A stretch of DNA of 13,684 nt. Source: a virus (taxonomy: Duplodnaviria > Heunggongvirae > Uroviricota > Caudoviricetes). The translations under genes were made by a program, and so were the position numbers. Where the stretch lies: positions 1-13,684 of IMG/VR virus record IMGVR_UViG_2563366959_000001; one strand, given 5' to 3'. Of the stretch, positions 1-7,521 are shown piece by piece (the stretch's first letter is position 1; each line of letters opens with the position of its first letter). Under the pieces are notes generated by a model that was given only the letters and a program-made list of their open reading frames with translations, was not told the origin of the DNA and made no database searches.

Positions 1-311
1 ACTGTACTGCGGCGCGCCAGCTGTTTAATGCGCGGATCCGGAGCATCGTATGAATCCGGCAGCGGAAGCCCTTCACCGTAAGCCATGGCATTGGACTGCC
101 CGGCCAGTACGATGACGTAGTACCAATCCGGCTCAGTTGCACCACTGACCACCACATCACCTTCTGCTGTAATCGCCTGCATCAGGGTATAAGGGGTTAT
201 GGCCACCGGACTACCAAACGGCTGCCAGCCCTCTTTCAGTTTGTGTGTCAGCTTTTCCGCAAGGTCTGACGGCGACGCCGCCCTGACAACATCATAATGT
301 TTAAATGTCAT
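1..311 (-). CDS. Late-region esterase, 5' part only (DUF1737-like N-terminus followed by SGNH/sialate O-acetylesterase-like domain; NanS-p-like); gene continues beyond window start
   Basis: ATG at 309-311 (minus) preceded by GGAGG (316-320) with 4-nt spacing; translation MTFKHYDVVRAASPSDLAEKLTHKLKEGWQPFGSPVAITPYTL...VLAGQSNAMAYGEGLPLP with the GQSN block typical of SGNH hydrolases; open to position 1. Confidence 0.6.
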   Translation of the reverse strand, partial: MTFKHYDVVRAASPSDLAEKLTHKLKEGWQPFGSPVAITPYTLMQAITAEGDVVVSGATEPDWYYVIVLAGQSNAMAYGEGLPLPDSYDAPDPRIKQLARRST

Positions 312-354
312 TATTCCTCCCGGCCGGGATAGTGTATTAAATCAGATATGGAGT

Positions 355-399
355 GGGCTGTAGTCCGGAAGCCTGAATGACACACGGGGACTACAGCCC
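355..399. other. Perfect 12-bp inverted repeat GGGCTGTAGTCC / GGACTACAGCCC with 21-nt loop (potential RNA stem-loop)
   Basis: Direct reading: arms at 355-366 and 388-399 are exact reverse complements. Confidence 0.5.
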
Positions 400-423
400 A
401 AGAAATGAAAAAAGGCCACGCAG

Positions 424-453
424 TTGCGCAGCCTGATAAACCCTGGTTAAAAT
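424..453 (+). promoter_or_regulatory. Candidate sigma70 promoter (TTGCGC - 18 nt - TAAAAT) facing the 496-520 terminator
   Basis: Hexamers read from sequence; no experimental support; would give a ~60-nt transcript ending at the plus-strand terminator. Confidence 0.25.
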
Positions 454-495
454 CCACACGATAACAACACAACAATATCAGTATCTCATGCTATT

Positions 496-520
496 GCCCG
501 AACCCATTCGGGCATTTTTT
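496..520 (+). terminator. Rho-independent terminator (GCCCGAA-CCCA-TTCGGGC followed by A + T6)
   Basis: 7-bp GC-rich stem, 4-nt loop, six T run at 515-520. Confidence 0.55.
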
Positions 521-521
521 A

Positions 522-553
522 CCCATAAAAAATGCCCCTCCGGAGAGGGGCAT
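522..553 (-). terminator. Rho-independent terminator for minus-strand transcripts (9-bp stem ATGCCCCTC/GAGGGGCAT, loop, then T6 on minus strand)
   Basis: Stem 532-540/545-553; plus-strand A-run 527-532 gives the U-tract on the minus strand; back-to-back with the 496-520 terminator. Confidence 0.55.
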
Positions 554-718
554 GTTTGCATGCACATTCTTTTTCTTGCATGGTGCCGGGTGCCTCCCGG
601 TGAATTCAGTATCAGCACCTGAATCCGCGATTATCACATATACCTGGTTGCTGATTGCCCCTCCGCACAGGGGGATTCACCATGCAGTAGTATTTTTAAT
701 AAACAGTAAACAAAAAAA

Positions 719-838
719 TCAAGCATTATGCAGGCTGTTTCTTTTTATCACCGGCCACAGCAATACCACAATGCCGCAGACCAGAGCGCCATCAGTCAGT
801 ACCAACATTATCCTGCTGGTGAAATCCATCATCACCAT
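719..838 (-). CDS. Candidate small hydrophobic single-TM peptide (39 aa from ATG: MVMMDFTSRIMLVLTDGALVCGIVVLLWPVIKRNSLHNA); alternative upstream GTG/TTG starts possible
   Basis: Hand translation of minus strand; open frame between TGA stops; no convincing SD; overlaps an antisense plus-strand ORF (552-881) so coding status is uncertain. Confidence 0.3.
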   Translation of the reverse strand: MVMMDFTSRIMLVLTDGALVCGIVVLLWPVIKRNSLHNA

Positions 839-971
839 CACTAAAAGCAGGATCACAACAGCAAGCAGACACAGTTTATAAAACAATGTTCAGAAAACGC
901 ATTCAGCATGCCTAAGGTTCTATTCCTACGAATAGCCAACTTGCAACTTAAAATATTATTTATGCAGCCAA

Positions 972-1730
972 TTAAATTCTGGTCCTTACAATATCAACCT
1001 GAAGATTCTTATCTTGTGCTGATTGATAAATCACAAACCTTTTACTACCTGCATTGAAAGAAGTAGACAAAACCAGACAATTATCATAACGAGCAAGAAC
1101 ATAATACCAACCATCATTATAATTAATCATTTCATATTCTTTCTTAAACTGTGGTTTGTAATATCCTGTCAGAAATGAAAAAAGCCAGAAATATGCCACA
1201 AAAGCAATCATCACAATCTCAAAAAAATGTTTTTTTATAAATGGCTTATCATAGAAGCATGATACCGATAAAAATCGCCCATAAGATCTTATCGAAATTG
1301 TAACCGCCAGCGCAATCGCTGCTGACAGTAGCAAAAGAGGTACCTGAATCTTCTGTCTCAATATAGAAAACTCAATAATTGCCGGCACAAACAATAATTC
1401 CACAGCAAAATAAAGGCGAAATACATTTAGCTCTTGCATAGAATGTTTTCTTTTCACTGCGAAAAAGAATACAACACCAATACCCCAACCGATAAGAAAT
1501 ATAGCAATGACGATAACTGCAAAAAATAAACTTCTGGCAACATCATCAACACCTGCACCTACAATCCACCATGGGAAGCCGTAGTAAAAAGAAGTACCCC
1601 ATCCATAGAAATAAGCACTCCCCCATCCAAGGCATCCCATGTAGGCAATAAAAAGTGAAGAACTCCTGAGCAGCGCACCATCCTTCATAACCACCCCAAT
1701 ACAAGATGATAACATTGGCTTACAACTCAT
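972..1730 (-). CDS. Polytopic membrane protein of unknown function (252 aa; aromatic-rich N-terminal segment, ~4-5 predicted TM helices, ~55-aa soluble C-terminal tail); AT-rich moron between Q/PR' and the late esterase gene
   Basis: Long ORF in an otherwise non-coding-looking, visibly AT-rich block; hydrophobic stretches LFFAVIVIAIFLIGWGIGVVFFFAV, FRLYFAVELLFVPAIIEFSIL, VPLLLLSAAIALAVTISI, FFEIVMIAFVAYFWLFSFLTGYY; candidate promoter TTGACG (1750-1755) - 17 nt - TTATGA overlapping the first ATG; true start may be Met6 (1715). Confidence 0.7.
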   Translation of the reverse strand: MSCKPMLSSCIGVVMKDGALLRSSSLFIAYMGCLGWGSAYFYGWGTSFYYGFPWWIVGAGVDDVARSLFFAVIVIAIFLIGWGIGVVFFFAVKRKHSMQELNVFRLYFAVELLFVPAIIEFSILRQKIQVPLLLLSAAIALAVTISIRSYGRFLSVSCFYDKPFIKKHFFEIVMIAFVAYFWLFSFLTGYYKPQFKKEYEMINYNDGWYYVLARYDNCLVLSTSFNAGSKRFVIYQSAQDKNLQVDIVRTRI

Positions 1731-1879
1731 AACAAAAGCAATTCAATGCCGTCAAGAGGTTACAGGCTAAAAAAACTCTATTACATTGCAGTCAGCATGT
1801 TTACTACACAAATACAATTCAGAGCATAAAAACTACTCGGCGGCAGGTTATTGAGACTCATCAATGACATGTAAAAAAC

Positions 1880-1925
1880 GCCCATTATTGGTGTCAAGTT
1901 TCCCCAAAGTTATTCAAAAAGTCAA
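1880..1925 (-). promoter_or_regulatory. PR'/qut-like late promoter region downstream of Q (minus strand TTGACT-TTTTGAATAACTTTGGGG-AAACTT-GACACCAATAATGGGCG)
   Basis: Position immediately after Q and close resemblance, from memory, to lambda PR' (TTGACT TATTGAATAAAATTGGG TAAATT TGACTCAACGAT); -10-like pause element AATAAT in the initial transcribed region. Confidence 0.5.
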
Positions 1926-1967
1926 TATTATGCCGTTAATATGTTGCCATCCGTGGCAATCATGGCG

Positions 1968-2591
1968 CTAACGTGTGATCGCATTCAAAATGTTGTCTGC
2001 GATTGACTCTTCCTTGTGGCATTGCACAACCAGAGCGTCATACAGCGGCTTAACAGTGCGTGACCAGGTGGGTTGGGTAAGGTTTGGGATTAGCATCGTC
2101 ACAGCGCGATATGCGGCGCTTGCTGGCATTCTTGAATAACCGACGCCTTTACATCTTCCGCACTCTTTCTCAGCAACTATCCCCCACTGCTCTGTTTTGG
2201 CTATATCAACCGCACGGCCTGTACCGTGGCAATCTCTGCATCTTGCGCCCGGCGTAGCGGCACTACGGCAATAATCCGCATAAGCGAATGTTGCGAGCAC
2301 TTGCAGTACCTTTGCCTTAGTATTTCCTTCAAGCTTTGCCACGCCACGGTATTTCCCCGATACCTTGTGTGCAAATTGCATCAGATAGTTGATAGCCTTT
2401 TGTTTGTCGTTCTGGCTTAGTTCATGCTTACCGCAGAATGCAGCCATTCCGAATCCGGCTTGTGATTGCGCCATCCCCATAGCAGCCATCACATCAGTAC
2501 CGGAAAGAGAGTCAGAAGCCGTGGCCCGTGGTGAGTCGCTCATCATCGGGCTTTTTGGCGAATGAAATTTAGCTACGCTTTCGAGTCTCAT
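1968..2591 (-). CDS. Q: Late-gene antitermination protein Q (lambda-type)
   Basis: 207-aa translation [44 protein letters not shown]... matches lambda Q as recalled, including Cys-rich zinc-binding region; ATGA-type overlap with upstream gene. Confidence 0.95.
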
Positions 2592-3253
2592 GCGCCTTCT
2601 CCCTGTACCTGAATCAATGTGAGGTTTCCGCAGAACACTGCGCCGGTATCTATATACATCTGGTTGGCAAACTTGAGTGGTTTCACTGCTGGCGTATGAC
2701 CAAAGATGAACGTGTCCGCGCCTTTGATTTCTTTCACGATCCCGTCTTGTGAGTTGCTGATTCGTTCGCGGTTCCAGATTACCTGCTGATGATCAACTGG
2801 CTTTCCAAACTCGTATTTATCACAAGGATAATCGGCGTGGCAGATGACATATTTTTTTCCTTTACTCACCAGTTCGATGATTAACGGAAGTTCATCTGCT
2901 TTATGGGCAAGAGCTTTAGCCAGAATTTCTTTGTCGTAATCGAGATTAAAGAACCAGCCACCGCCATTAAGCAGCCAGTGATTGACGTTTCCACGCTCTG
3001 ATAAGCCATCAATCATCATTTGCTCATGGTTTCCACGTACAGCTCTGAACCAGGGGAATGTGATTAATTCCAGGCATTCTACGTTCTCTGTACCGCGATC
3101 AACCAAATCGCCCACCGAGATAAGCAGGTCTTTTTTGGTGTCGAATCCTATCGTCTCCAGTTTTTTCATCAGGTTCGTGTAGCATCCGTGCAGATCGCCA
3201 ACTACCCAAATATTTCGGTATTTGCTGCCATCAATTCTTTCGTAGATATTCAT
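2588..3253 (-). CDS. ninI: Ser/Thr protein phosphatase (lambda phosphatase, NinI/orf221 family; calcineurin-like metallophosphoesterase)
   Basis: 221 aa; motifs GDLHG, GDLVDRG, GNHE characteristic of PPP-family phosphatases; stop overlaps Q start. Confidence 0.95.
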
Positions 3254-3855
3254 GCAACCTCACTTCTGCTGTTTCGCAGTTTTTTAAGTTTCTGTTGATA
3301 CTCCGCCTTGATGGCCCTGCACTCTTCGACAGTCCAGCGATAGCGGTTATGGTTTGATTCGATTTCCTCTACTGCTTCCTGCCCGATGCGGCTAATCAGT
3401 TCGACGCGATACGGAACGAGATTTCCGCTTTTGTGCTGGTTGCACACCACGCATTGCTTGTGAATATTGCGTTCATCAAATCGGAGTTGAGGTGCCGCAG
3501 CAGTTGTCCGGTAATGTCCGGCATCCCACTGAGCAGACGTGAGCGTTCCGCACGAGATACATGGTAAGTCGCGGTCTCTTTCTCTGATGAAGGCGTTTAC
3601 GGCTTGTTGGGCTTGTTTAATCCAGTAACTGCGGGGCTTTAAGGCGAGTTTTCGAATCTTAATTTTATCTTTCTGTTTCTGCTCCTCTCGTCGTCGTTTC
3701 TTCTCTGCTGTTTTTTCCGCCTTTTCGCGTTCTTTATTTCGTCGTTCGAGCGCTAATTTAGTTCCGTGTTCCGGGCTGCACCACCACTGATTTGAGAATG
3801 CCGGGTGAAACCATTCCTTACAGATTTTGCATTTCCTTCGCGCTGGTTTAGCCAT
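3250..3855 (-). CDS. ninG: NinG/Rap recombination-associated protein (Holliday-junction/branched-DNA endonuclease family)
   Basis: 201 aa; N-terminal Cys motif [10 protein letters not shown]...WWCSPEHG, lysine/arginine-rich linker, conserved C-terminal Cys/His cluster; synteny just upstream of phosphatase and Q. Confidence 0.9.
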
Positions 3856-4583
3856 TAAGCAGCCTCCCCTGTTACTTTAAGCATTCCGTTATCGAGCAGC
3901 TTTCTGGTCAGCCACTGTTGACCACGCCCGGTGATTTTTGTGGTGAACGATATCTGTATTCCGTGATTTGTATTGACCGCTGTTTCTTTCACTGTGAAAT
4001 AGCCGCGATCCATATATTCCTGCATTGGCACATTGCGCCGGGCACCTGAAGCAATAAGGATTTTGTGTTCGCGCATCCACGCAAACAGTTTGTTTGGACC
4101 AATACCAACAACCTTTGCATAGTTTCCAATCAAAATTCCGCTGGCCTCGCCAACGCGATCGGCAAACTCAACTTTAGGTGCGGCAATTGCGAGCTGGTTT
4201 TCCAGTTGCATTTTCTGCTCAGCAAGATCAGCAGCAAGGCGCAACGCTTCTGGTAGAGTTTTGGGGATATTAACCGCAGCGTCTTCAAGCTCTCGCCAAC
4301 GGTCAACAAGACGAGCGGTGAATTCCGGCGACAACTGGGCAACGACAATAATGCTGTCTCGCTTACCTTGTTCGCCTTCGAATACATACACACGAAAACT
4401 TTGATTTAAGCCTAACCCATTGATTCTTCCACAATCCTCAATTTGAGGATGTCGGATAACACCATTTTTAGCCAGCATTTCGATAGTACGTTTCACATTG
4501 TCATGACGCTTACCTGTAAGCTCAGAGATTTCAATGCTGGTCATTTTGATGACGTTGCTATTTATCAGCTCGTTCATTGTCAT
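3855..4583 (-). CDS. Phage antirepressor-like protein (Rha-type N-terminal domain + KilA-C/ANT C-terminal domain; Roi-like)
   Basis: N-terminus [23 protein letters not shown] (Rha-like), C-terminus with ANT/KilAC-like block; likely true start at Met3 (ATG ending 4577) 8 nt after GAGG; stop overlaps ninG ATG (TAATG). Confidence 0.8.
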
Positions 4584-4651
4584 GTCCTCTCATATTGAAA
4601 ATTCACCAATAAAAAACCCAGCCGAAGCTGGGTTTGTTAAGTTGTCAATTG

Positions 4652-5356
4652 TCAGTAGCGATGTAGTGAAGGAGGTAATTCTTTGTTCTTAAGCCTTACC
4701 CATGCGGAAAGATTCGTTGGTCCGTCTGGCTCATTAATATCAACATCTCGTGTGTGATTGATTAAAACGTCTCTCGCCATTCCAATAACATACGAGAACT
4801 CATGACCGTAGTCGTAACATCTGCCGGAATAGTTCGATTGAATTTGCTTTAGCGCTGGATACAATTCGCGGAATAATGCCTGTGAGCGGTTAGCATAATC
4901 CCACAGCCATACAAGGCTGTCTGTTTCTTTTGCGGAAAGCCCGTTGAGCTTCTTCTCTTGTTTGCCAGTATTTTTCTCGCACTGGCTGAAATAGCAGTCT
5001 TCCAGTTTTTCGAACACTTCCCACGCCTGATCGGTTTCGAGCATTTTGGCGTGACGGGCTGCTCCGCGTTCTGTCCAGAGGATGAGGGAGCGGGCTTTCG
5101 GGGAAATTTGTAACCCTCTTAAAGATGGTTGCAAATTTTGTGAGTTACTTAAAGTAACCCGCAAAATTTTCAACTCATCACCAACAACCTTGAAAAAGTG
5201 TTTACCCTCAACAAAACGCTCGGAATTACGGGTGTAATTTACTTTGATGTTGTTGATCTCGGTACAGTAAAGCTGTGCCAGTAACTCGGTAGTGATAACG
5301 GGAATTTGGTTGTGTGTAATTGGGGAAAGAGTTTCGACAGAAATCTGAGTGGCCAT
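4652..5356 (-). CDS. ORF6N/KilA-N-family DNA-binding protein (phage regulatory protein)
   Basis: Conserved block ...[34 protein letters not shown] typical of ORF6N-domain proteins; start placed at [10 protein letters not shown] (ATG at 5354-5356) with GGAG 8 nt upstream rather than the longer track ORF. Confidence 0.7.
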
Positions 5357-5513
5357 AACGATAACTCCGTACATTTGGACATTATCGCCACCGTCAGGTG
5401 CTAATCATCATGGTGGCGAACTGTGCGGGGTTAGCACTACCGGGTACGGAAACCGGCGAGCCTTTCGGCTCCCCCACACAGCCCGCCATAAATCGCGAAT
5501 GTGACTGTGCAAA

Positions 5514-5548
5514 CGATATGAAAAAAGACGCGGGCGCGTCTCATATCG
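5514..5548 (-). terminator. Rho-independent terminator in the nin region (inner hairpin GACGCG-NN-CGCGTC followed by T6 on minus strand, nested in a longer inverted repeat CGATATGA...TCATATCG)
   Basis: Read directly; on minus strand GACGCGCCCGCGTC is followed by TTTTTTCATATCG. Confidence 0.5.
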
Positions 5549-5633
5549 CTCCGTAAACATCCGGGGTGCTAATCCCGACGCCAGATTTTGCTGGCGCGTG
5601 AGGAATATAGCCCCGAATAAATCATCGCGTCAA

Positions 5634-5816
5634 TCACCTTGTTTTCCTCGCACGATGTCTTAGCCACCGGATATCCCACAGATGAGCCGTGCAGTTGAAG
5701 GTTTTTACGTCAGATTCTTTTGGGATTGGCTTGCGTTTATTTCTGGAGCGTTTCGTTGGAAGGTATTTGCAGTTTTCGCAGATGATGTCGGTGATGCTTC
5801 GTCGCTGTCGCCTCAT
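5634..5816 (-). CDS. ninE: NinE family protein (60 aa)
   Basis: Translation [60 protein letters not shown]; ATG overlaps the methyltransferase stop (ATGA). Confidence 0.8.
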
Positions 5817-6340
5817 GCCGCCCTCCTGACGCCCTGCCCGATCGCCATCAATGCCGCTTTGGATACAGTAGTAAACATTCGTCGAGGACTGATGAACGGT
5901 CGCCAAATCAGCAGCATGGAGCCTTTGCTGTTTCCCTTCTTCTCCAGCCCTGTCGATGGTTCGATAAAATTAATCCGTCCATCAGTGATAATGCGAACTT
6001 CGTCAACACTCTCCAGAGCCTTGCTGAACCATCCGACTGACATATCCTCTGGCACAAGCATCACTACCGTCTGTCGCTGTTGTATGCACTGCTCAGCGGC
6101 TTTTTCCACCCACGGCCTGATATTGCTGTACGGTGGGTTATTCCAGATTGCACCGTGGCTTATCCACTCAGAATTTAGCGCGTCGTCGGCCTCAGTTAAC
6201 CAGTGAGCGCACAGAGCATTTTTGTCGCTCGCTGCCGAATCCAGCCAGAATCCAAACTCAATATCCAGTGCATCAAAAAGCCAAAGCGGCGTTTGCCAGC
6301 AGTCCTTGTCGTGTGATGGCGTATTTGATTTGATAGTCAT
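5813..6340 (-). CDS. Phage Dam-family DNA N6-adenine methyltransferase (orphan, no adjacent restriction enzyme)
   Basis: 175 aa from [25 protein letters not shown]...; NPPY catalytic motif (motif IV of amino-methyltransferases); occupies the ninC position; ATGA overlaps at both ends. Confidence 0.85.
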
Positions 6341-6939
6341 GCAGCCCGATCTCCCCATCGCGCTTTCATTTTTTCATTTGCAAATCGCCAGAATCTTCCT
6401 TTGTGATATGAGCTTTCGCCATTACAGCAACGACTAATTGACGAACTATCAAATCCTTCTCTGACAGCATCCATAGCTGCTTCATAATAAACCTCCTCCC
6501 CAGTTTTCATGTCAGTAGAAATAACAGCTTTACTGGCAGGATGGTCACCACTAAATTTACCTAGCGATATAGGTATTCTTCCATTTTGTTTATATCCGTG
6601 TTTTGAGTTTTCAGAATGTGATACCCATTCAAGGTTATCAGCCCTATTGTCATCTCTTCGCCCATTTTTGTGATTAACTACCAAGCCATCACAGAACCCT
6701 GTACAGAATGCTTTCGCAACTATCCTGTGGGCGCTGTATTTCTTACCGTATACCTTTATTTGAAGATATCCTGTCGACTTGCACTTGAATGGTTTTACAC
6801 TAGTGCCATTAATTATTTTCTTATATGGCCTCTGTCTGGTTGATGTTACTGTAACTTCCCTCGTAATAGACCTGAAATTTCCTTTATTGCTAACCTGATA
6901 AAATGGAATCCCTTCGATATCTACCCAAACCTCAATCAT
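6337..6939 (-). CDS. HNH homing endonuclease (NUMOD4-like N-terminus + HNH nuclease motif)
   Basis: N-terminus MIEVWVDIEGIPFYQVSNKGNFRS (NUMOD4-like), HNH core VVNHKNGRRDDNRADNLEWVSHSEN; GGAGG 4 nt upstream of ATG; AT-rich; C-terminal 9 residues KARWGDRAA look like a NinB C-terminus. Confidence 0.85.
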   Translation of the reverse strand: MIEVWVDIEGIPFYQVSNKGNFRSITREVTVTSTRQRPYKKIINGTSVKPFKCKSTGYLQIKVYGKKYSAHRIVAKAFCTGFCDGLVVNHKNGRRDDNRADNLEWVSHSENSKHGYKQNGRIPISLGKFSGDHPASKAVISTDMKTGEEVYYEAAMDAVREGFDSSSISRCCNGESSYHKGRFWRFANEKMKARWGDRAA

Positions 6940-7348
6940 AATTCCTCCATTCGCTAAGATGAATTGAGTTCATGGCACAATATGCTTCTATGTAGTCCAT
7001 TATTTCGGATATTTTTTTTACAGATAGAGTCGCCGTACTCTCTCTGATGTTTATTAGCTCACCTTCTAACCCTGATATAATCTCAGGGTGCTGGTTGGTT
7101 GCAATCTGCCAACCAGAAACGAATAACCCCTTCCAAAACTCAATATTTCTTGCTTTTCCGTGATATGTAGCCTTCTTACTTATTTCAGATAGCATCGCGT
7201 GAAGGCGTGCATTTTGCCGAATGCTGCGGTTGCGTTCCTGAATGGTTACTACGATTGGTTTGGTTGGGTCTGGAAGAATTTGCTGGATAGCTTGAATGGC
7301 GTTCTGCTGATGGATGGGGCTTCTTAGTTCAAATGTTAGTTTCCTCAT
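6932..7348 (-). CDS. ninB: NinB (Orf-family recombination mediator) homologue; lambda-like N-terminal third, divergent AT-rich remainder
   Basis: From MRKLTFELRSPIHQQNAIQAIQQILPDPTKPIVVTIQERNRS (near-identical to lambda NinB N-terminus as recalled), 138 aa; start chosen at internal ATG (7346-7348) matching the family N-terminus. Confidence 0.85.
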   Translation of the reverse strand: MRKLTFELRSPIHQQNAIQAIQQILPDPTKPIVVTIQERNRSIRQNARLHAMLSEISKKATYHGKARNIEFWKGLFVSGWQIATNQHPEIISGLEGELINIRESTATLSVKKISEIMDYIEAYCAMNSIHLSEWRNYD

Positions 7349-7511
7349 CACCCTTAATCCTCTCGAAGTTCTTCTCGAAGTTTTTGGTGTCGAACACTGA
7401 CCACCGACCATTATGAATGGCGTATGCACATGTCTTGTTTTCGTCCTGATAAACCACCCTTACCTTGCGATAAAACCGTGGCTTAATCTCTCTGAATATT
7501 TGCTCGCTCAT
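7329..7511 (-). CDS. Hypothetical small protein (60 aa)
   Basis: ATG at 7509-7511 with strong SD AAGGAG 5 nt upstream; MSEQIFREIKPRFYRKVRVVYQDENKTCAYAIHNGRW...; 3' end overlaps ninB start out of frame. Confidence 0.55.
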   Translation of the reverse strand: MSEQIFREIKPRFYRKVRVVYQDENKTCAYAIHNGRWSVFDTKNFEKNFERIKGDEETNI

Positions 7512-7521
7512 GCTCACTCCT

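Follow-up and report, generated by a model that had tools for sequence, protein, structure and literature searches.

A gene of the STM1630/TfpB family of predicted inner-membrane proteins heads a mobile AT-rich cargo module downstream of the late-gene antiterminator in a lambdoid prophage

The DNA analyzed here (positions 1 to 13,684 of the Caudoviricetes record IMGVR_UViG_2563366959_000001 in IMG/VR, the whole 13,684-nucleotide stretch being referred to below as the window) is a lambdoid prophage whose rightward and late genes lie on the minus strand. It encodes cI, cro/cII, O, P, a nin region with NinB, Dam, NinG, and a phosphatase, and Q, and further includes two antirepressor genes and two HNH endonuclease-like genes. 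The subject of this work is tfpB (972..1688, minus strand, stop codon included), a gene for a 238-amino-acid (aa) predicted inner-membrane protein that is assigned to the STM1630/TfpB family from its homologues, PF27470, and phrog_1521. It occupies the slot between Q and the lysis genes that carries stxAB in Stx phages, nmpC in DLP12, and lc in PA-2. Like those genes, tfpB is located just after Q and the late promoter PR', upstream of nanS-p and the lysis genes, and has a foreign base composition; unlike them, it codes for a predicted inner-membrane protein, apparently with a promoter of its own, and not for a secreted toxin or a porin. We conclude with high confidence that tfpB leads a mobile, AT-rich set of cargo genes in the stx slot of lambdoid prophages and, with equal confidence, that its product belongs to the STM1630/TfpB family (PF27470, PHROG 1521).

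The gene upstream of tfpB, Q (1968..2591, minus strand), codes for a 207-aa late-gene antiterminator of the lambda type, as stated in the initial annotation of this DNA; it matches PF03589 at 1.2e-57 and is annotated in RefSeq as “antitermination protein.” The 3' end of Q is ∼90% identical in blastn comparisons to that of the HK97/HK022/HK446 group, and the same level of identity extends from position 2000 down to position 1881 in alignments with the Q 3' end and the annotated PR'/qut region of phages HK446, HK542, and mEpX1, where the matched stretches carry the labels “promoter” and “similar to lambda Qut site.” This match bears out the earlier call of a PR'/qut-like element. The lambda-type PR' with qut and the early transcribed region spans 1881..1925 (minus strand), and its hexamers, read directly from the sequence, are TTGACT (-35, 1925-1920) and GAAACT (-10, 1902-1897).

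Downstream of tfpB, the small peptide predicted in the initial annotation is encoded at 719..886 (minus strand) and proves to be a 55-aa DUF3927 membrane peptide (PF13064 at 1.4e-13, 51 bits versus a gathering cutoff of 25; phrog_1470 at 2.7e-19), described as “TciB-like” and annotated as TciB in phage 434. The NanS-p-like esterase that had been recognized further downstream is likewise present: the 5' part of a SASA-family (NanS-p-type) carbohydrate esterase gene begins at position 311 and runs off the window (1..311, minus strand). It corresponds to a 1,854-nucleotide (nt) coding sequence in the RefSeq annotation of the identical locus and is 86% identical to the phage 434 esterase (tblastn). 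That identical locus, in Escherichia coli O157:H7 strain LSU61, is annotated as coding for an antitermination protein, hypothetical protein WP_001302581.1, a DUF3927 protein, and a SASA-family esterase, followed by a class II holin, YdfR, and lysozyme.

An AT-rich open reading frame (ORF) of 252 aa had been noted after Q and PR', and it is indeed found there (972..1730, minus strand); the GC fraction of tfpB is 0.36 (0.32 to 0.39 in 300-nt windows) versus 0.51 to 0.53 in the neighboring Q. The start of the gene is likely the ATG at 1688-1686, resulting in a protein of 238 aa rather than 252. All full-length homologues are 236 to 238 aa long and align from Met15 of the 252-aa ORF, the PHROG profile matches begin at ORF residue 15 or 31, and the ATG at 1730 falls within the proposed -10 element of the tfpB promoter. 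RefSeq and the phage 434 record start the ORF at yet another upstream ATG, which gives 247 aa. A Shine-Dalgarno-like GGGGTGG, read from the sequence, is found at 1691..1697 (minus strand) ahead of the family-consensus start, and other alleles carry a G-rich patch at the same distance from it. The earlier statements that the gene lacks a good Shine-Dalgarno sequence and that its message would be near-leaderless fail because they were based on the longest-ORF start; the Met15 start has both GGGGTGG ahead of it and a leader of ∼30 nt.

The putative promoter of tfpB itself, a sigma-70-type element with an extended -10 (1726..1755, minus strand), was identified from its conserved sequence. It had been proposed in the right place (1727-1755) as TTGACG-N17-TTATGA and is better read as TTGACG (1755-1750), an 18-nt spacer, and TGnTATGAG ending at 1726. 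The sequence CTTGAC...TTTGTTATG is kept upstream of alleles with 57 to 59% protein identity that reside in another prophage, on an enterotoxigenic E. coli (ETEC) plasmid, and in a uropathogenic E. coli (UPEC) island, and CTTGAC-N18-TGnTATGnn is found upstream of tfpB behind both lambda-type and Q82-type Q genes. Conservation across such unrelated contexts is good sequence evidence that the promoter travels with the gene. The coding sequence is under selection as well. Among 12 tfpB alleles from unrelated contexts, pairwise dN/dS ratios are 0.05 to 0.21 and all ORFs are intact (236 to 238 aa). Since intact ORFs of equal length also occur across genera, tfpB is a real gene beyond chance.

Coliphage 434 encodes the same protein (CPT_434_68, “putative membrane protein”; 100% identity), as does RefSeq entry WP_001302581.1 (100% identity), and a 98% identical gene is present in phage 2B8; a tblastn search of 50,697 phage records revealed no other relative, and no stx phage among these records carries one. 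A search of 5.8 billion clusters returned 103 homologues, all of which, including the identical protein P0001 in its 247-aa form, carry a PF27470 assignment (precomputed on the homologues, the model being absent from the Pfam copy used for direct hmmscan). The short name of PF27470 is TfpB, the newest PGAP annotation of the E. coli protein is “STM1630 family protein,” and phrog_1521 is matched at 2e-154 over the full profile. A profile search of 1.84 billion representatives yielded only 72 clusters, all of them unnamed or “hypothetical,” with named sources in Enterobacterales, Pasteurellaceae, and Neisseria. The best-studied relative is the Salmonella protein P0075 (238 aa; E value 1.3e-70, 46% identity across 94% of the 252-aa ORF), which is STM1630 by gene size, by its neighbor sseJ, and by the published STM1630 deletion primer (PMC6785131), which encodes the P0075 N terminus (NSSMLLAYLGGLGWG). 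STM1630 (SL1560) is similar to the prophage protein in its 238-aa length, full-length 46% identity, common motifs, and AT-rich gene, and differs in being encoded on the chromosome between steB and sseJ, not in a prophage, and behind another promoter located ∼200 nt upstream. Common to the family are a length of ∼238 aa, a C-terminal beta domain, and a YKPQxKKEY junction; the alignments also contain an aromatic/Gly-rich GWGSAYFYGWG..YYGFPWW motif and DxxARSL.

The earlier description of the protein as unrecognized therefore does not hold for its catalog status, PF27470, the PGAP STM1630 family, and PHROG 1521 all covering it, and does hold in that these families have no known function. Scans of the query and 44 family members against Pfam-A, NCBIfam, and PADLOC produced isolated chance-level matches only, and a profile search of the PDB sequences gave no match at E values of up to 10. 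In the literature, no paper was found on PF27470, WP_001302581.1, or the “STM1630 family,” papers retrieved with “TfpB” deal mostly with chemistry and anesthesia, none being about the Moraxella ORF, and DUF3927 appears in one unrelated paper. The name TfpB, which one Shigella dysenteriae plasmid record applies to its own copy (“TfpB protein”), was presumably borrowed from a Moraxella ORF, tfpB, in the pilin-inversion region. No Moraxella sequence is present among the homologues recovered, and, in contrast to the origin of the name, no pilin gene adjoins any member examined.

Hydropathy analysis reveals four strong hydrophobic transmembrane (TM) segments preceded by a weakly hydrophobic, aromatic- and Gly-rich first segment, as well as a nonhydrophobic C-terminal tail of ∼60 aa. 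In the AlphaFold2 model, built from a 44-sequence alignment (pLDDT of 78, pTM of 0.71), helices at residues 10-36, 47-78, 89-111, 116-136, and 155-181 are followed by a five-strand beta domain at 184-235. Lysine and arginine residues together number 2.5 per sequence in the loop at 78-87 and 3.3 in the loop at 135-154, versus 0.2 in the acidic loop at 32-51. The predicted topology thus has a cytoplasmic N terminus, five TM helices, and a periplasmic C-terminal beta domain of 60 aa. Of the earlier description, the four to five hydrophobic helices and the aromatic N-terminal segment are confirmed, with five TM helices now predicted, and the soluble tail of ∼55 aa becomes a predicted beta domain of ∼60 aa. 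The residues that are kept family-wide are aromatic or small (Ala25, Tyr26, Trp30, Trp40, Ala51, Gly175, Tyr195, and Phe218) and are placed by the model at the end of TM1 that faces the periplasm, in loop 1, where TM5 ends, and in the beta domain. Polar residues of the catalytic type are not conserved across the alignments of the family. A Foldseek search against BFVD returned no match at an E value of 0.001 or below. Altogether, no sequence or fold relative with a known function was found in BFVD, the PDB sequences, or PADLOC, the profile and structure comparisons having been proposed at the outset as the way to place this protein.

The TfpY/FimB-like proteins (PMC11841053) resemble the predicted TfpB architecture in that several N-terminal TM helices precede a small beta-containing domain in the periplasm, and for both, a mode of action through binding rather than catalysis is described or proposed. 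They have three TM helices and are encoded beside pilin genes (PMC11841053), in contrast to the five TM helices predicted for the STM1630/TfpB family and the lack of a pilin neighbor in the loci examined. Compared by helix count and genomic context, TfpB was rejected as a member of this pilin accessory class.

The module headed by tfpB can be delineated by comparison with sequenced phages. Homology to the lambda type (lambda, HK97, HK022, and the HK446 group) ends at ∼1881, and a separate module begins at ∼1849; from there, the window is near-identical to phage 434 through tfpB and DUF3927 to ∼700. The order within the module is the putative tfpB promoter, tfpB, the DUF3927 gene, and a block of small RNA (sRNA) genes and terminators of the STnc100 and AgvB families. 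An STnc100-family element (521..711, minus strand; RF02076, full length, 144.7 bits versus a gathering score of 47) directly follows the DUF3927 stop codon and ends in a strong terminator at 553-532. A second terminator was found by the terminator scan at 434-413 (minus strand). On the opposite strand lies an AgvB (anti-GcvB) sRNA gene (459..520, plus strand; RF02702, full length, 96.5 bits versus a gathering score of 56), which is terminated at 495-514 (plus strand); the AsxR model scored under its threshold on this stretch. The back-to-back terminators of the initial annotation are thus hairpins on both strands that mark the ends of the STnc100 and AgvB genes. DUF3927 adjoins tfpB only in prophage alleles and is missing beside all nonprophage ones, which rules it out as an obligatory partner.

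At its left end, the module carries a degraded remnant of a tR'-type terminator, AACCTGCCGCCGAGTAG-TTTTT (1828..1849, minus strand), recognized in the alignment with phage 434. Its counterpart in 434 is an intact terminator, AAACCCGCTGCCGAGTGGGTTT plus a T-run, with nine pairs, located after a Q82-type PR' (locus L009, 4835-4856), whereas AACCTGCCGCCGAGTAG-TTTTT is unable to form the 434-type hairpin. A terminator scan detected none between PR' and tfpB in the window, and the predicted fold of this stretch is not stronger than that of shuffled sequences (z score of 0.26), so the idea of a terminator at this place was rejected. Among the 77 loci with this allele, the hairpin is degraded or variant behind a lambda-type PR' in ∼42 and intact behind a Q82-type PR' in ∼32; the degraded or variant hairpins behind lambda-type PR' occur as several independent sequence variants. 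With a lambda-type Q, good terminators are first met 1.35 kb downstream of PR', past DUF3927 (553-532 and 434-413). Phage 434 resembles the window in having the identical 238-aa protein, with TciB/DUF3927, a SASA esterase, and a pinholin downstream, and differs in having a Q82-like Q and an intact terminator in place of the lambda-type Q and PR' and the degraded hairpin. Another observation from the 434 locus is an lpxR gene ∼1.3 kb upstream of tfpB (L009, 2666-3625).

These data agree with the earlier description of the gene as a moron (in the sense of Hendrix and colleagues), or cargo, at the Q/PR' junction: the junction is variable, the composition is foreign, and the module is found behind at least two Q/PR' types. 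More specifically, the module is missing at this junction from the close phages (lambda, HK97, HK022, and the HK446 group) and is common to 434, and the base composition of tfpB is deviant. The conserved promoter-like sequence ahead of the gene and the strong terminators after DUF3927 might allow expression from the repressed prophage. The claim of recent acquisition applies to the module. It does not apply to the family, which is old: some members are chromosomal, those of Salmonella and Citrobacter are syntenic, and the surroundings in Pasteurellaceae and Neisseria are core-like. Two other AT-rich genes of the window, coding for NUMOD4+HNH_3 (6337-6939, minus strand) and HNH_3+AP2 (8193-8804, minus strand) proteins, are inserted in the nin/replication region and look like homing-endonuclease cargo.

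The phage 434 record marks the region 41277-45846, which covers tfpB, as lacking in 434B. This phage is propagated and forms clear plaques although DLP12 prophage DNA has taken the place of ∼5.5 kb that comprised Q, the late promoter, and the lysis region (PMC9119081). Because 434B is viable without this region, tfpB is dispensable for lytic growth; the announcement of the 434 and 434B genomes states that morons vary between these phages (PMC9119081).

Matches to tfpB are found in 1,197 of the 5,426 complete E. coli genomes (about a fifth). In 679 genomes, the identity is at least 99%, and many of these belong to O157:H7 and other strains of the Shiga toxin-producing E. coli (STEC) type. A comparison of gene neighborhoods shows that prophages of both E. 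coli and Yersinia have the gene directly after Q: after the lambda-type Q in the window, after a Q82-like Q in phage 434, after a differently annotated Q in E. coli strain 88-3493 (an allele of ∼57% identity), and after a PF06530-type Q in Yersinia enterocolitica (45% identity). In the 88-3493 prophage (L111, 5072-12613), Q is followed by the tfpB allele, a 65-aa ORF, a DNA methyltransferase gene, tRNA-Ile and tRNA-Arg genes, a gene for a short protein annotated as “TolA,” and the SASA esterase gene. We take this order to resemble the layout of stx phages, with tfpB right after Q and another gene at the place of stx; the tRNA-Ile and tRNA-Arg genes, a little further downstream in this variant, add to the likeness, similar tRNA genes being located ahead of stx in Stx phages. 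In bovine strain OkiPb01684, an otherwise identical tfpB is interrupted by IS1A (NZ_AP042519.1, 1167345-1168838). A 3-kb contig labeled “MAG: Veillonella sp.” (JAIITD010000172.1), 100% identical to the lambda Q, tfpB, DUF3927, and the start of the esterase gene, is most likely a binning contaminant.

Outside prophages, the family is found on plasmids, in islands, and at chromosomal loci. Of the 156 PLSDB plasmids with a match, 106 are from Shigella, and in the one plasmid inspected, the S. flexneri M90T virulence plasmid (pINV) pWR100, its neighbors are virA on one side and spa40 on the other. On ETEC plasmids (L011 and L113 to L117), an allele with 58 to 59% identity is located 866 bp from eltA, divergent from eltAB in every place shown; this allele is indexed in 1,285 blocks, and the pair is bounded by insertion sequence (IS) elements, with the STb gene at a distance of ∼3 kb. 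A Klebsiella island combines a copy with STb and two-partner secretion genes, and a UPEC island carries one after the pap operon. An iro island of extraintestinal pathogenic E. coli (ExPEC) has a copy beside iroBC (L122, 3329-7700), flanked by an antirepressor fragment, tRNA- and STnc100-like stretches, Rz, and bor/iss remnants; this island segment is a decayed lambdoid prophage late region. Another ExPEC strain has a tfpB pseudogene. The view that the ETEC, Shigella, Salmonella, and UPEC copies are obvious prophage fossils was rejected, their flanks having no prophage homology; only the ExPEC iro copy has it.

In Salmonella, STM1630 lies between steB and sseJ, both described as genes for translocated effectors, and Citrobacter rodentium carries the gene at the syntenic place (ADH, MCP, and LysR genes), next to lpxR; there, 178 bp separate it from the divergent, split lpxR lipid A deacylase gene (L118, 3863-5717). 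In Glaesserella parasuis (L018, 8955-11017), the family member is the convergent neighbor of cdtC-cdtB-cdtA, an operon in which the CdtA/C domains were confirmed and the middle ORF has no Pfam match, and in a Mesocricetibacter metagenome-assembled genome (L017, 8888-15364), it is convergent with the HlyD, HlyB, and RTX toxin genes. Housekeeping genes surround the members at two Aggregatibacter actinomycetemcomitans loci and in Pasteurella canis, Rodentibacter, and Neisseria arctica. Several nonprophage members are AT-poorer than their flanks.

Published experimental data on the family concern only STM1630. This AT-rich, H-NS-bound gene is expressed in medium inducing Salmonella pathogenicity island 2 (SPI-2) and in macrophages in strain 4/74, groups with the SPI-2-coregulated genes, and is silenced in ST313 through -10 mutations. 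Its deletion leaves growth normal, and signature-tagged mutants were reported to be attenuated in calves and chickens.

Taken together, these observations are best explained if TfpB is a conserved, dispensable cargo inner-membrane protein with the expression routes outlined below and a role in the cell envelope during the host phase, a reading to which we assign a probability of roughly 55%. In the lysogen, tfpB would likely be transcribed from its own sigma-70 promoter, with a leader of ∼30 nt and a Shine-Dalgarno sequence. Since the upstream terminator hairpin is degraded in the lambda-Q form, PR' may also read into the gene in lysogens; in lambda-Q prophages, tfpB would then probably be transcribed from the constitutive PR' up to the STnc100 terminator, and the “short PR' transcript” would become an mRNA of ∼1.35 kb for TfpB and DUF3927 that ends in STnc100. 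After induction, the level of tfpB transcription would rise through the Q-modified polymerase, which would continue into nanS-p and the lysis genes.

As for what the protein does, we tentatively suggest that TfpB would bind a partner in the envelope, on the periplasmic side of the inner membrane: in the modeled topology, the conserved residues are aromatic or small and none is of the catalytic type, which is why it is read as a binding protein and not as an enzyme. This would make it, and the point is put forward with the same reserve, a lysogenic-conversion factor that acts on the envelope in the host phase, as opposed to a lysis protein or an enzyme. A host-phase role is favored because the family is widespread outside phages, occurs with virulence loci (on the Shigella pINV plasmid, beside eltAB, sseJ/steB, cdtABC, and an RTX operon, and in UPEC and ExPEC islands), and, in Salmonella, is regulated together with intracellular-phase genes. 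Lambda Bor and Lom, outer-membrane morons that are expressed in the lysogen and alter the cell envelope, provide the working analogy. Like them, tfpB would be a single, Q-independent, dispensable accessory gene of the late region with an envelope product; unlike them, its product is a predicted inner-membrane protein, Bor and Lom being unrelated in sequence to the STM1630/TfpB family, and its envelope role is a supposition.

Several points weigh against this interpretation. No family member has a demonstrated function, the topology is a prediction in which TM1 is weakly hydrophobic, and the tfpB promoter is known as a conserved sequence only, one that a generic promoter scanner did not list. 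Read-through from PR' is deduced from a missing recognizable hairpin, and it could be blocked within the AT-rich leader, either by H-NS silencing or by termination that depends on Rho. The Salmonella phenotypes are weak or inconsistent: deletion of STM1630 in strain 4/74 raised replication within macrophages, and a motility role can be set aside, the hypermotility of an STM1630 deletion seen in a screen not having been reproduced with a clean deletion. Finally, alleles with as little as 45% identity keep the place after Q, behind Q genes that are annotated differently, and such constancy argues for a tie to late transcription, fitting a role in the phage cycle as well as one in the host phase.

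One role in the phage cycle would be superinfection exclusion or another membrane-acting defense, in which the periplasmic face of TfpB blocks DNA entry or a receptor or translocon, as modeled on P22 SieA, T4 Imm, and HK97 gp15, which block incoming phages, or the membrane collapses on infection. Such a role would suit a single prophage gene that is predicted to be expressed in the lysogen from a promoter of its own and whose product is an inner-membrane protein with a conserved surface predicted to be periplasmic; the recurrence of the after-Q place in E. coli and Yersinia prophages would also fit, as would a distant subfamily member that lies beside an AAA ATPase pair in an island at icd. 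Nevertheless, we regard it as unlikely. Superinfection exclusion, abortive infection, and defense had all been suggested in the initial annotation, and none gained positive evidence: the query matched no PADLOC model, the 44 members gave four isolated and not credible matches, at E values of 0.014 to 0.022, and as the tblastn search found relatives in 434 and 2B8 alone, there is no sequence kinship with the Sie, Imm, Rex, Cor, or Llp genes of the sequenced model phages in the set searched. Many members, moreover, reside outside prophages, including long-resident chromosomal copies and those on virulence plasmids, and STM1630 is regulated with SPI-2 genes. The lysis cassette offers another tie to late transcription, since a membrane protein on the late transcript upstream of it could be a holin, antiholin, spanin-like, or lysis-timing protein. 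That seems highly improbable. Between tfpB and the holin gene lie the sRNA genes, two terminators, and an esterase gene of 1.85 kb, and the downstream set of class II holin, lysozyme, and “lysis protein” genes is complete. A protein combining five TM helices with a beta domain is unlike the known holin classes (to our knowledge, none of classes I to III or the pinholins has such an architecture), the family is common outside phages and has no homologue in sequenced phages other than 434 and 2B8, and Pfam and PHROG scans of the product matched no lysis family, so the clear holin or spanin homology that would have argued against cargo is not seen.

The company that the family keeps suggests, in turn, that TfpB might be an accessory factor linked to toxins or effectors, aiding their release or expression or shielding the envelope of the producer. 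Members are found next to eltAB (866 bp, divergent) in every ETEC place shown, and convergent with cdtC-cdtB-cdtA in G. parasuis and with HlyD/HlyB/RTX in Mesocricetibacter. The Salmonella member has steB and sseJ on its two sides, those of Klebsiella and ETEC have STb nearby, and prophages of the enterohemorrhagic E. coli (EHEC) type carry the gene in the stx slot. Export of the neighboring toxins follows unrelated routes, namely, type I HlyB/HlyD beside the RTX toxin, a type II system for LT (the heat-labile toxin), and translocation in the case of the effectors SseJ and SteB, which makes a common mechanistic partner unlikely. The genes can be divergent, convergent, or codirectional, and no toxin is found in the housekeeping surroundings in A. 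actinomycetemcomitans, P. canis, Rodentibacter, and N. arctica. Because AT-rich islands hold both kinds of genes, the adjacency may only reflect horizontal transfer and H-NS-tolerant sites. We therefore see little chance that this link is real, and the broader proposal, in which the family would be a conserved inner-membrane partner of mobile toxin and effector loci in Enterobacterales, Pasteurellales, and Neisseriales, coupled in lambda-Q prophages to the 1.35-kb mRNA from PR', appears just as doubtful. A conserved cargo protein acting on the envelope in the host phase thus stays the preferred explanation.

As things stand, tfpB is an ordinary, catalogued hypothetical membrane moron, and the finding as such is already known, because its sequence, its family, and its moron status are in public annotation. 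New here are the corrected start, the module boundaries, the distinction between terminator-intact and terminator-degraded architectures, the identities of the sRNAs, and the survey of contexts. The family deserves attention for where it occurs, with relatives in the prophages, virulence plasmids, and toxin loci of numerous pathogens of the gut and mucosa: on Shigella plasmids, by the ETEC LT genes, in the Salmonella sseJ/steB locus, and in about a fifth of complete E. coli genomes. If it were a toxin partner, TfpB would be needed for toxin release or would protect the envelope of the producer in the host; should either that link or phage exclusion prove true, a function would be assigned to a widespread pathogen-associated family.

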